Shown: positions 32,711-35,403, numbered from the stretch's first letter. The stretch is 64,000 nucleotides of DNA from Gemmatimonadota bacterium (GCA_965116475.1 OZ220691.1:1408001-1472000), one strand, 5' to 3'. Translations and numbers: made by a program. Notes: a model not told the origin generated them from the letters alone.

Positions 32711-33649
32711 ATGGGACGTTTCACAGACGAGGAACTGCAGCGGAAGGTGCAGGAAGGGTTCATCGTCGAGTCCGAAGAGGACATGACGGAGACCTACAAG
32801 CGGGCGCTGATCACGCAGCTCACCGTCCAGGGCGACACGGAACTGATCAGCGCGCCGGCCTACTTCATGGCCGCCCGCGACGCGCCGTCCACGAACACGA
32901 TGGTCTCGGCCACGGCGATCATCCAGGACGAACTGGGGCACGCGAACATCGCCTACCGCCTGCTCGAGGACCTCGGCGTGGACCGCCACTGGCTGCTCTA
33001 CGAGCGGGAACCCGCCCACTTCAAGCACCCCTACGGCTTCGACCAGCCGCTCATGAACTGGGCCGAGCTGGTGTCGGCGAACGCGCTCTACGACCGGGCC
33101 GGGATCACGCTGCTGGGCGACGTGCACCGCAACACGAGCTACGGGCCGCTCAAGCGCGGCCTCGTCAAGGTGAGCCTGGAGGAGAACTTCCACCTGCGGC
33201 ACGGCGAGGTCTGGATCCGCCGCTTCGCCGAGGCGGGCGGCGCGGCGAAGGAAGCCGTGCAGCGGACGCTCGACTGGATGTTTCCGATGGGCGTGGAGTG
33301 GTTCGGGATGCCCGACGACCGGAAGCACCACAACGCGCAGCTCGACTTCCGCCTCAAGGGGATGACGAACGACCAGCTCCGCCGGACCTGGCTCAAGGCG
33401 GTCGTGCCGCTGTGCGAGGAGCTCGGGTACGACCTTCCGGCCCAGTACGACCCCGACACGGACGAAGTGGAGCTGACCTACGAGCTTCCCTGCCAGTACG
33501 ACCCGGAGGCGCGGCGCTGGCTCTTCAATGAGACGATCACCTGGAAGCAGGTGTTCGAGCGCTGGAAGGCGCGCGGCCCGATGAACGAGCAGTACGTCGA
33601 TTCGCTGCGGCGAAGCCGGTTCGCGGTCGAGCGGCTGCTCGCGGCATGA
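32711..33649 (+). CDS. PaaA-like di-iron ring-epoxidase/oxygenase catalytic subunit (divergent)
   Basis: Ferritin-like ligand set: GDTE, QDELGH, LYD, EENFH. Confidence 0.85.
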   Translation: MGRFTDEELQRKVQEGFIVESEEDMTETYKRALITQLTVQGDTELISAPAYFMAARDAPSTNTMVSATAIIQDELGHANIAYRLLEDLGVDRHWLLYEREPAHFKHPYGFDQPLMNWAELVSANALYDRAGITLLGDVHRNTSYGPLKRGLVKVSLEENFHLRHGEVWIRRFAEAGGAAKEAVQRTLDWMFPMGVEWFGMPDDRKHHNAQLDFRLKGMTNDQLRRTWLKAVVPLCEELGYDLPAQYDPDTDEVELTYELPCQYDPEARRWLFNETITWKQVFERWKARGPMNEQYVDSLRRSRFAVERLLAA

Positions 33650-34107
33650 ACACCGGCGCCCCGGCCCGCGACGTGGCGCGCCCGCGGCACCTCCCGCGGT
33701 ACGAGGCCGGCATGGACTTCGGCGCCGTGCTCCGGGAGACGCAGGGCGGACGGGAACTGCCGCCCCCGCCCGCATTCGCCGAACCCGCCGCGGACCTCGC
33801 GGAGCGGGCGCGGAGGGCGCTCTACGAGGTCGCGGATCCCGAGTTTCCGATTTCGATCGTCGACCTCGGGCTCGTCCGCGGCGTCGAGGGGGACGAGGCG
33901 GCCGGGTCCGTCACCGTCCACCTCACCTTCACGGCCACCGCCTGCCCCTGCATGGATTTTATTCAATGGGACGTGCGGGAGCGCCTGCTCGAGCTGGACG
34001 GCATCCGGCAGGTCGAGATCGTGACCGGATGGGATCCGCCGTGGACGACGGCCGCCATCTCGGCGCGCGGACGGACGCTGCTGCGCTCCGTCGGAGTCGT
34101 CACGTGA
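33646..34107 (+). CDS. DUF59/PaaD-type metal-sulfur cluster assembly factor (N-terminal PaaD part)
   Basis: DPEFPISIVDLGLV, TATACPC, WDPPWT. Confidence 0.85.
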   Translation: MNTGAPARDVARPRHLPRYEAGMDFGAVLRETQGGRELPPPPAFAEPAADLAERARRALYEVADPEFPISIVDLGLVRGVEGDEAAGSVTVHLTFTATACPCMDFIQWDVRERLLELDGIRQVEIVTGWDPPWTTAAISARGRTLLRSVGVVT

Positions 34108-34352
34108 TCCGCAACGGACGGGTGTACGAGGTGTTCGCCCGCAAGAAGCGGGCCGACCGCTTCGAGCATGTGGGCGCGGTATCCGCCCCCAACGAGCAGT
34201 TGGCGCGCGTCTACGCGTGGCAGACGTACGACGAGGCCAAGTGGTTCGAGATGACCGTCGCGCCCCGCGATGCGTTCGCGGCGGTGAACCGGCCGCAGGC
34301 CCCGTTCACGCTCGGCGGTTCGGGCGGGCGGGCGTCGGGGGATGCGCGGTGA
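34104..34352 (+). CDS. PaaB-like subunit
   Basis: YEVFAR...HVGAVSAP...A...Y pattern; GTGA overlaps at both ends. Confidence 0.8.
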   Translation: MIRNGRVYEVFARKKRADRFEHVGAVSAPNEQLARVYAWQTYDEAKWFEMTVAPRDAFAAVNRPQAPFTLGGSGGRASGDAR

Positions 34353-35173
34353 CGGAGAGCGGCTTCCGGTCGGCGGAGGACCTCCCGGAGGGCGTGTCCG
34401 GGCACCTCGCCGGCCTCATTCTCGCCCTCGCCGACAACAAGCGGCTGCTCGGCATCCGCTACTCGGACTGGATCCTCGGGGCGCCCTCGGTCGAGGCCGG
34501 CATCGCCTGTTCCGCCATGGCGCAGGATGAGTGGGGGCACGCCCGCATCCTCTATGCGCTGCTGCGCGACTTCGGCCACGATCCGTCCGTCCTCGAGCAC
34601 GAACGCGCGTCCGACGAGTACCGCAGTTCCGAGCTGCTCGACCGGGACGTCGCATCGTGGGAGGAATTCCTCGCCCTCAACTTCCTGTGGGACACCGCGC
34701 TTTCGGTCCAGTTCGAGATGCTGGTCGAGAGCCGCTACGAGCCGATCCACTACAAGGTGCGCAAGCTGCTCGAGGAAGAGCGCTTCCATTTCGACCACGG
34801 ACAGGGGTGGACCTCCCGCCTGCTGAGCGCCGAGGGCGGGCGGGCCGCGCTGGCCGAAGCCTTCGGAGCGGCCTGGAACGCGTGTCTGCGCGGGTTCGGC
34901 CCCGACGACGACCCGCTCATCGGGACGCTCGCCGCGCACGGGATCGTGCGGCGGGATGCCGCCGGGGCGCGGGCGCGCTGGCTGGAACGGGTGGGTCCGG
35001 TCGCCGCGGAGACCGGCCTGGCGCGCGACGCCGGAGCGGAGTGGGTCAGCACGCGCGAACCCGTCTGGGAGGATCGCTGGCGTGAGCGGCGGCGGGCGGT
35101 GGACGGCGGCCCCGACGAAGATTCCCTCGCCCGGGTGCGGGGCGACCGCAACCGCGAACTCCTGATGGACTGA
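34349..35173 (+). CDS. PaaC-like subunit
   Basis: LADNK..G..YS.W..GAP, QDEWGHAR, EEERFH. Confidence 0.85.
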   Translation: MTESGFRSAEDLPEGVSGHLAGLILALADNKRLLGIRYSDWILGAPSVEAGIACSAMAQDEWGHARILYALLRDFGHDPSVLEHERASDEYRSSELLDRDVASWEEFLALNFLWDTALSVQFEMLVESRYEPIHYKVRKLLEEERFHFDHGQGWTSRLLSAEGGRAALAEAFGAAWNACLRGFGPDDDPLIGTLAAHGIVRRDAAGARARWLERVGPVAAETGLARDAGAEWVSTREPVWEDRWRERRRAVDGGPDEDSLARVRGDRNRELLMD

Positions 35174-35178
35174 AATCC

Positions 35179-35403
35179 ATGCCCGACGGCCCGAAGCACG
35201 ACAGCGCAAGAGGCGATGCCCCGCCGGAGCGGTCGCCGCTCGACGATCCGGTCGTGTCGTCCGGCATGCCCGCCTCGGTCCCCTGCCCCTTCTGCGAGGC
35301 CGACGACTCCGACCCGTTCGCCACCTTCGGCGGACAGGCCTCGACCGCCCAGTACTACTGCAACGCCTGCCGCACCGTGTTCGAAGCCGTGAGGTGGCGC
35401 TGA
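35179..35403 (+). CDS. PaaD-like zinc-ribbon protein (stand-alone)
   Basis: CPFC...FGG....YYCNAC...FE, matching the C-terminal part of PaaD. Confidence 0.75.
   Translation: MPDGPKHDSARGDAPPERSPLDDPVVSSGMPASVPCPFCEADDSDPFATFGGQASTAQYYCNACRTVFEAVRWR

Follow-up and report, generated by a model that had tools for sequence, protein, structure and literature searches.

To our knowledge, only two aerobic 'hybrid' coenzyme A (CoA)-dependent ring-epoxidation systems have been characterized: PaaABCE, which acts on phenylacetyl-CoA, and BoxAB, which acts on benzoyl-CoA. Here we describe a related five-gene module encoded at 32711..35403 on the plus strand of a 64,000-nucleotide stretch of a Gemmatimonadota genome (GCA_965116475.1 OZ220691.1:1408001-1472000, G000:C1:1408001-1472000 in our numbering; hereafter the window). 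The host genome is a single contig of 3.62 Mb with ~70% G+C and is 96.3% complete by marker genes; the names borne by near-identical proteins and loci assign it to Candidatus Palauibacter within Gemmatimonadota. Judged from sequence comparisons, the module is most likely an aryl-CoA epoxidase of PaaABC architecture that likely uses benzoyl-CoA or a close benzoate-type aryl-CoA and not phenylacetyl-CoA, a reading to which we give a probability of roughly one half.

The module and its closest described systems

The module contains the following genes:

32711..33649, plus strand: A, PaaA-like catalytic di-iron subunit, 312 amino acids (PF05138, TIGR02156 match)
33646..34107, plus strand: D, DUF59 protein, 153 amino acids, corresponding to the N-terminal half of PaaD (PF01883, TIGR02159)
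34104..34352, plus strand: B, PaaB-like small bridging subunit, 82 amino acids (predicted start GTG 34104)
34349..35173, plus strand: C, subunit in the PaaC position, 274 amino acids (predicted start GTG 34349)
35179..35403, plus strand: Z, Cys4 zinc-ribbon protein, 74 amino acids, corresponding to the C-terminal domain of PaaD (PF23451)

The open reading frames (ORFs) coincide exactly with the five tightly coupled genes (A, DUF59, B, C, zinc ribbon) described in an initial annotation of this DNA. Start and stop codons overlap at A/D (ATGA), D/B (GTGA), and B/C (GTGA), and C is separated from Z by 5 nt; the starts of B and C are placed by these overlaps together with the point where homology begins.

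Both A and C belong to the Pfam family PF05138 (179.1 and 134.1 bits; gathering cut-off 28.5), and all five proteins fall short of the PaaABCDE equivalog cut-offs (TIGR02156-TIGR02160). A scores 113.5 bits on the PaaA model TIGR02156 (cut-off 280; 517 for E. coli PaaA as a control) and C scores 100.9 on TIGR02158 (cut-off 133.35). B scores 28.1 on TIGR02157 (cut-off 85.45) and 25.2 on PF06243 PaaB, just below the cut-off of 27; it is 43% identical to E. coli PaaB over 28 amino acids, and its position is conserved among related loci. D (PF01883, 51.6 bits) and Z (PF23451 Zn_ribbon_PaaD, 46.6 bits) reach 64.8 and 35.6 bits on the PaaD model TIGR02159 (cut-off 108.15), at model positions 1-88 and 85-144, respectively. 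D is also 32% identical to E. coli PaaD residues 19-109, and Z 33% identical to residues 121-163, where it reads CPFC...CNAC against CPRC...CDSC. Because D and Z match successive parts of both the model and the E. coli protein, we consider them a split PaaD.

The closest characterized complex is PaaABC(D)E of E. coli and Klebsiella (PDB 3PW1, 3PVR, 4IIT), with 27.5% identity between PaaA and A (E 2e-33, TMq 0.80-0.81). The two systems share all six di-iron ligands, the window supplies PaaB-like, PaaC-position, and PaaD-like partners, and PaaA residues F108 and K103 are kept in A as F110 and K105. However, the window order is A-D-B-C-Z instead of A-B-C-D-E, PaaD is divided between two genes, the host genome lacks PaaE, a lysine bridge is replaced by I and Y, C has five of six metal-ligand residues as opposed to two of six, and the module is not associated with PaaK, PaaZ, or PaaX.

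BoxB of Azoarcus evansii, a benzoyl-CoA 2,3-epoxidase (PDB 3PM5, 3PER) that functions with the reductase BoxA, the dihydrolase BoxC, and the dehydrogenase BoxD, shares with A the first-ligand helix Q-G-D-T-E-x-x-S and a D-R-x-G motif, and a BoxB-like gene holds the same operon in sister genomes without the module. Unlike A, BoxB is a single subunit of 470-480 amino acids without B or C partners. A has no match to the BoxB equivalog TIGR03225 at E<=0.01, and C, at 14.8 bits, does not reach its cut-off of 499.1; no BoxB chains were among the PDB sequences matched by A (E<=0.01). The host genome also lacks BoxA, and its best BoxC match is far below the model cut-off.

Two less well described systems are relevant to the other subunits. 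The haloarchaeal Paa cluster (NCBIfam NF041867-NF041869) encodes PaaD as a lone DUF59 protein, together with a distinct 56-amino-acid zinc-ribbon 'PaaE' that is not a flavin/Fe-S reductase, and its PaaD model is the top NCBIfam match of D (86.2 bits). Compared by models only, the window proteins nevertheless score far below the haloarchaeal cut-offs (86 vs 180, 24 vs 150, and 21.5 vs 100). For C, the solved structure that matches best by sequence is PDB 4MUD (E 1.1e-11, ahead of PaaA and PaaC), the structural-genomics entry for SSO1313 of Sulfolobus solfataricus, a protein of unknown function titled 'ring oxidation complex / phenylacetic acid degradation related protein'; the match is confined to the first 147 aligned residues.

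A subfamily outside canonical PaaA

The proposal that A represents a separate subfamily is borne out by its low score on the PaaA model and by its phylogenetic placement. In a maximum-likelihood tree of 49 rows, from which 16 partial or fused-looking representatives had been dropped beforehand, the subfamily forms a clade with support 98/92 that excludes all four rows passing the PaaA cut-off, and the canonical PaaA clade has support 98/91; thus A is not nested in canonical PaaA. The root lies on a very long BoxB-like branch and is unreliable, so we make no claim about the order of events. In an HMMER comparison against the library, full-length relatives scoring above 177 bits fell into only about ten clusters at 50% identity, and canonical PaaA scored ~100 bits. 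Ten other subfamily representatives, like A, score 65-128 bits on the PaaA model. The subfamily has named members in Gemmatimonadota and Dormibacteraeota as well as in a Bacillus and a Paenibacillus. The AlphaFold model of A (pLDDT 95.5) has PaaA chains as its top eight Foldseek matches (TMq 0.78-0.81), with PaaC and 4MUD at ~0.62.

Active-site residues of A and C

A keeps six di-iron ligands, E44, E74, H77, D128, E158, and H161, the counterparts of E42, E72, H75, D126, E155, and H158, which passages of a review give for E. coli PaaA (PMC4498308). These ligands and the D-T-E motif are invariant in 153/153 A-type relatives taken from the genome and metagenome loci that we collected. The same passages describe a lysine bridge near the di-iron site of PaaA, formed by K68 with E49, E72, and D126 (PMC4498308). 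This bridge is absent from A, where K68 is replaced by I70 (148/153 relatives) and E49 by Y51 (152/153).

The segment around the first ligand reads QHAHSEIVG in E. coli PaaA, TQGDTEPAS in Azoarcus BoxB (3per_A), and VQGDTELIS in A; the likeness to BoxB and the HxE-type PaaA segment noted in the initial annotation agree with these sequences. At the Asp ligand, A and BoxB both have D-R-x-G, where E. coli PaaA has D-G-A-A. According to passages on BoxB, Gln116 hydrogen-bonds benzoyl-CoA, and Thr119, Ser123, Phe193, Phe203/206, and Thr210 orient the ring (PMC5489048). Among the contacts named there, Gln116, Thr119, Ser123, and Phe193 correspond to Q40, T43, S47, and F110 of A, and the first three positions are H, S, and G in E. 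coli PaaA; Q116, T119, E120, and S123 were put on the BoxB motif by counting along the printed alignment. Q40 is present in 101/101 sequences at least 60% identical to A. The resemblance to BoxB is confined to the active-site helices, while the whole sequence and the fold are nearer PaaA.

C also has a conserved set of potential metal ligands. Its residues at the six ligand positions are K31, E61, H64, D115, E144, and H147, so that five of six are kept, and these residues occur in 108, 104, 105, 109, 113, and 110 of 113 relatives, respectively. E. coli PaaC keeps only two of the six (D101 and H133). By BLASTP, C scores higher against E. coli PaaA (57 bits) than against PaaC (47 bits).

A BoxB-like gene replaces the module in a shared operon

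We surveyed 301 genomes of the phylum, drawn evenly and all at least 80% complete, for the module (a full-length match at >=62% identity) and for orthologs (>=63% identity) of a crotonase gene, crot1, that is linked to it in relatives. A is 62-100% identical across the phylum. The module was found in 92 genomes, a BoxB-like gene in 55, and both in 0. crot1 is present in 147/301 genomes, including 91/92 module holders (the exception is G240) and 54/55 BoxB-like holders; hence 145/147 crot1 holders have one of the two oxygenases. Only 2/154 genomes without either oxygenase encode crot1: G111, in which the module match lies at the end of a contig and is truncated, and G211, an assembly of 230 contigs. 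Three unpublished genomes are included (G096, with the module, and G156 and G181, with the BoxB-like gene), the removal of which shifts each count by 2 at most; no statistic is given for these counts because related genomes are not independent.

Genomic linkage parallels this pattern. In the 15 module holders of one family (f3), and in G111, crot1 is on the same contig within ~3 kb of the module in all but G108. In the three genomes of this family examined for synteny (G175, G058, and G038), the module is directly followed by crot1, an aldehyde dehydrogenase (ALDH), a thiolase, crot2 (a second crotonase), a GDPD-like gene, a 3-hydroxyacyl-CoA dehydrogenase (HADH), crot3, and an Amidohydro_2 gene; a TetR gene lies in the region as well, and in G175 no thiolase was detected. 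The operon recurs in G126 and G141 (parts 52-83% identical), where the module is missing and a BoxB-like gene lies between crot2 and the GDPD-like gene. It encodes a protein of 413 amino acids that contains YQGDTEFAS and matches solved BoxB with E=4.7e-54. In a second family (f4), crot1 and the BoxB-like gene occur in exactly the same 11 genomes, and in six canonical-PaaA genomes checked, no crot1 match was found.

These observations suggest that the module is the functional equivalent of the BoxB-like enzyme of the sister genomes, and for this reason benzoyl-CoA or a close analog would be its likeliest substrate. The suggestion in the initial annotation of an aryl-CoA substrate other than phenylacetyl-CoA thus gains indirect support from the BoxB-type residues, from this exchange of oxygenases, and from benzoate-CoA-ligase-family genes beside the module in relatives (discussed below).

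One or two in-frame stops near the 5' end occur in 12/55 BoxB-like matches (TGA in 11, TAA in 1; G133, G180, G055, G004, G072, G100, G052, G103, G270, G212, G156, and G023). Most likely, the ORF used as the query starts ahead of the real start codon.

Pathway genes in the host genome

As noted initially, the window encodes no PaaE, PaaK, PaaG, or PaaZ, and searches with hidden Markov models found none above cut-off anywhere in the genome. PaaE, the FNR/[2Fe-2S] reductase subunit (TIGR02160, cut-off 420.8), has no match at E<=0.001 in the single contig, and tblastn with the E. coli protein likewise gave none. Top scores are 103.9 for PaaK (cut-off 646), 214 for PaaG (345), 112.5 for PaaZ (563), 28.8 for BoxA (459), and 84.6 for BoxC (712), the last being crot1, while the sole match to the PaaA model is the module itself (112.7 vs 280). 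Searches of the genome by tblastn with E. coli PaaX and PaaY gave no match. Within the window, the only weak matches to pathway models are a pyrroline-5-carboxylate (P5C) dehydrogenase and a FadB-like fusion protein.

The absence of a local pathway, also noted initially, holds for the surroundings of the module and not for the genome as a whole. Using the neighbors of related modules as tblastn queries, we located an operon at G000:C1:447.8-454.5 kb that encodes crot1, a thiolase, crot2, a GNAT protein, HADH, an aminotransferase, and a short-chain dehydrogenase/reductase (SDR); the crotonase-thiolase-crotonase-HADH set occupies G000:C1:447.8-452.1 kb, ~1 Mb from the module. Host crot1 (G000:C1:447863-448651) is 68% identical to the crotonase directly after the module in one related locus (L107) and 71% identical to that of G126, and the thiolase, HADH, and second crotonase are 65%, 54%, and 58% identical to parts of the G126 operon. 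The thiolase is 3-oxoadipyl-CoA-thiolase-like (543-548 bits, just under cut-offs of 597-605), and the best family of crot2 is PaaG (214 bits). crot1 is the top match to the BoxC model in 5/5 genomes tested, though far below the cut-off. Moreover, two host genes pass the benzoate-CoA-ligase family TIGR02262 (570 and 480 bits; cut-off 375), one of them ~58 kb upstream of the module. The TetR and BoxB-like genes seen in these relatives have no matches in the host.

The initial annotation had named, as evidence against its proposal, a complete paa pathway elsewhere in the genome together with an A subunit nested among characterized PaaA. Because the distant set is not a canonical paa pathway, this combination was not found.

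Co-occurrence of ligase and module across the 301 genomes was considered and rejected as a link, as no correlation was seen (ligase ortholog in 30/301 genomes; 5 candidates per genome scored).

Gene neighborhoods in relatives

The neighborhood survey proposed initially was carried out on the best 80 genome loci and on 80 metagenome loci seeded with distant members. Wherever the contig is long enough, nearly all loci of both sets have the order A-D-B-C-Z, indicating that the module is not a chance arrangement. The 80 genome loci are all from Gemmatimonadota, with A 65-99% identical to that of the window, and their other neighbors vary between synteny groups; a linked crotonase, ligase, or thiolase was found in 0/80, and 22 'ALDH' matches are P5C dehydrogenase. 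The metagenome loci, which span 42-74% G+C with the same gene order, are not independent, and several are near-copies. In 52 of them A is <60% identical to that of the window, and 28 of the 32 with at least 3 kb of flank adjoin CoA-pathway genes, as opposed to 0/15 well-flanked loci among the 28 with A >=60% identical. Neighbors in the metagenome loci are as follows:

crotonase: 22/80
ALDH: 15/80
benzoate-CoA-ligase family: 11/80
TetR: 9/80
Amidohydro_2, directly upstream of A: 8/80
PaaY-like: 6/80
PaaJ-like thiolase: 4/80
PaaX-like: 2/80
PaaK-like: 1/80
PaaE: 0/80 (0/160 related loci overall)

One representative ligase beside the module scores 594 bits on TIGR02262 (cut-off 375).

Some individual loci have other contents. 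In L114, a Pyr_redox_2 / Rubredoxin_C-type NAD(P)H reductase (L114:13398-14786) lies between ALDH and thiolase genes downstream of the module; it is the sole candidate for a dedicated reductase in the 160 loci and has a 28% identical host homolog at G000:C1:2136884-2138062. A Firmicutes-like metagenome contig with 45% G+C (L099:6012-16929) encodes a metallo-beta-lactamase (MBL)-fold protein and a PaaX-like regulator upstream of the module and, downstream, an SDR, a crotonase, an MBL-fold hydrolase with a PF21221 C-terminal domain, a bicupin, a creatininase-family protein, and an ABC substrate-binding protein, possibly reflecting a different, hydroxylase-type pathway. A group II pyridoxal-phosphate-dependent decarboxylase is encoded 2-4 genes downstream of the module in 20/80 Gemmatimonadota loci from two synteny groups (e.g. 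L053:13228-14709). In one Gemmatimonadota synteny group (4-5 loci; L040:4447-6846, L049:6773-7843, L049:10601-11677), the module is flanked by a creatininase-domain fusion protein, as well as by a mandelate-racemase/muconate-lactonizing-enzyme-family gene and a 'MetA-pathway of phenol degradation' outer-membrane protein.

Contrary evidence and alternative functions

Several observations weigh against a benzoate-type substrate. A is nearer PaaA than BoxB in both sequence (BLASTP E 2e-33 vs 9e-14) and fold (TMq 0.80 vs 0.55-0.61), and of the BoxB pocket residues named in the passages cited above, Phe203, Phe206, and Thr210 correspond to L120, A123, and Y127 in A. The position of Gln116 is Ser in 50/52 distant relatives (<60% identical), which form the clade adjoining benzoate-CoA-ligase-family genes. 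The BoxB-like comparator itself scores 224.7 bits on TIGR03225 against a cut-off of 499 and is ~100 amino acids shorter. No module or BoxB-like holder has a match of canonical-PaaA strength, and the three oxygenase types look mutually exclusive in the sample, so exclusivity alone is no sign of a shared substrate; the connection between the module and the BoxB-like gene rests on their shared operon. The phyletic counts come from genomes that are related to one another.

The host genome adds to these points. It has no ortholog of the operon ALDH (best 42% identity) and no match to the Amidohydro_2 gene, so the pathway may be incomplete; it may be reduced in the host or completed by non-orthologous genes. 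The ortholog of the better ligase occurs in 30/301 genomes and in 0/48 genomes of one module-bearing family, and neither a PaaE-type nor a BoxA-type reductase was found in the genome.

The strongest alternative is that the module is a divergent but true phenylacetyl-CoA 1,2-epoxidase, with phenylacetyl-CoA formed without PaaK, e.g. from phenylpyruvate by a 2-oxoacid oxidoreductase, and with the linked crotonases, ALDH, HADH, and thiolase forming an alternative lower Paa pathway (PaaG, PaaF, a crotonase-type oxepin-CoA hydrolase, PaaH, and PaaJ). The nearest solved structures and sequences are indeed PaaA and PaaC, accompanied by PaaB-like and PaaD-like parts and by retention of PaaA F108 and K103, and crot2 matches PaaG best and 'oxepin_alt' at 181 bits. 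The PaaX-like and PaaY-like neighbors of some metagenome loci, and the lack of canonical PaaA in module holders of the phylum sample, fit as well. This function nonetheless seems rather unlikely to us: the five proteins lie under the Paa equivalog cut-offs, the K68/E49 bridge is replaced by I70/Y51, a PaaK-like gene adjoins the module in one metagenome locus as opposed to the eleven with a benzoate-CoA-ligase-family gene, and the host has no PaaK above cut-off. In addition, the gene that replaces the module in the operon is BoxB-like and not PaaA-like, the canonical-PaaA genomes checked have no crot1 match, and the crot1 and BoxB-like holders of family f4 coincide.

The module might instead hydroxylate a substituted benzoyl-CoA of the hydroxy- or aminobenzoyl type without opening the ring by epoxidation, the product being de-esterified and cleaved by a dioxygenase, or decarboxylated or hydrolyzed by the Amidohydro_2 enzyme. 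The gene content of L099 resembles such a pathway, Amidohydro_2 is found directly upstream of A in eight metagenome loci and at the end of the operon in the phylum, a creatininase-family gene adjoins the second ligase of the host, and the change between Q and S at the Gln116 position hints at more than one substrate in the subfamily. However, the recurrent partners of the module (crotonases, ALDH, HADH, and 3-oxoadipyl-CoA-thiolase-like proteins) belong to ring-opening CoA pathways, the L099-type context was seen only once, and the Amidohydro_2 gene has no ortholog in the host. We regard hydroxylation as quite unlikely.

A non-catabolic role of this ferritin-like/DUF59/zinc-ribbon set in iron handling, Fe-S maturation, or oxidative-stress defense could account for the position of the module among housekeeping genes, between P5C dehydrogenase and GlnRS, and for the identity of A across the phylum, but is highly improbable given the near-perfect co-occurrence with crot1, the linkage to CoA-pathway genes elsewhere, and the PaaB-like and PaaC-like partners indicative of an oxygenase complex; the FeoAB, YggX-like Fe(2+)-trafficking, or periplasmic binding proteins beside some Gemmatimonadota modules (4-5 loci each) are each limited to one synteny group, and the iron-handling idea was dropped on that account.

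Proposed reaction and significance

For an epoxidase acting on benzoyl-CoA or a close analog, we propose that a heteromeric di-iron oxygenase composed of A, B, and C would epoxidize the aromatic ring of the aryl-CoA thioester, with A as the catalytic subunit and B and C building an (ABC)2 scaffold. D and Z would together act as a maturation or accessory protein, the DUF59 and zinc-ribbon parts of which are encoded separately. Electrons would come from a carrier encoded outside the operon, because the genome has neither PaaE nor BoxA. The product would probably pass to the crotonase, 3-oxoadipyl-CoA-thiolase-like, second crotonase, and HADH set ~1 Mb away, making the module the functional counterpart of the BoxB-like epoxidase in the operon of the sister genomes.

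In a wider and distinctly tentative interpretation, which we would bet against at present, the module would represent a third class of aerobic aryl-CoA ring epoxidase, in which a PaaABC architecture converged on the benzoyl-CoA-binding residues of BoxB and displaced BoxAB-type enzymes across at least seven Gemmatimonadota families and several other phyla. C would have a Lys-containing metal site of its own, and electrons would arrive without a dedicated flavin reductase, possibly via the stand-alone Cys4 ribbon in a rubredoxin-like role. A literature search of listings, with subscription journals outside its coverage, returned nothing describing the module or a Paa-for-Box swap. What appears to be new is that the module is linked to the crot1 operon and exchanged for a BoxB-like gene, that A has BoxB-type contact residues and no lysine bridge, and that C has conserved residues at its metal-ligand positions.

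Passages of one study indicate that genome surveys take PaaA and PaaC as markers of phenylacetate degradation (PMC13186573). Public records annotate the module protein as 'PaaA/PaaI', so that marine, soil, and sponge-associated Gemmatimonadota, along with members of other phyla, would be credited with phenylacetate catabolism. If the module acts on benzoate-type CoA esters without PaaE or BoxA, these annotations and the pathways deduced from them would be wrong for the whole lineage. The module would then also constitute a natural experiment on the determinants of substrate specificity in this fold, and the delivery of electrons to it would become a biochemical question. The BoxB-like exchange in an otherwise identical operon makes the benzoate-type hypothesis directly testable.

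Transcript coverage and flanking features

Contigs from a sponge metatranscriptome library (X4), with 90-99% likeness, cover 29/30 bins of 32000-36200 and span the A-D-B, B-C, and C-Z junctions; the uncovered bin, 35666-35806, is uninformative. In two marine metatranscriptome runs of one study, parts of A are covered, and in one run small parts of D and C as well. This coverage is compatible with transcription of the module but proves neither transcription nor a single transcript. Scans for Rfam families (32400-36000) and promoters (31500-36000) yielded nothing of note. One feature may mark the end of the transcription unit:

35818..35847, plus strand: terminator-like hairpin, 12-pair stem (9 G-C) followed by a T run

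This hairpin is 415 nt past Z and 19 nt ahead of the start of the glutaminyl-tRNA synthetase (GlnRS) gene, and is weak on its own, the terminator scan having returned 2 sites where 1.4 are expected from shuffles.

The rest of the window examined is of housekeeping character and encodes polyphosphate kinase, Ppx, P5C dehydrogenase, a GlnRS-YqeY fusion, prolyl- and methionyl-tRNA synthetases (ProRS and MetRS), and AccA, in addition to a TonB receptor and the FadB-like protein. The 460-nt gap between Z and GlnRS (35404-35865) contains a 68-amino-acid ORF (35547-35753), which matches no Pfam family and includes a hydrophobic stretch resembling a signal peptide, and an 11-nt tandem repeat of 3.9 copies (35774-35816), directly followed by the hairpin. 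GlnRS (35866-38403, 845 amino acids) has a C-terminal GatB/YqeY domain, and an 18-nt tandem repeat of 4.5 copies within its gene (37464-37544) codes for a repeated Gly/Asp/Pro/Ala linker. A further tandem repeat, with a 12-nt unit (TCCACTGCACGA) in 4.1 copies, lies at 29846-29894 between an OmpA-family gene and the P5C dehydrogenase gene.

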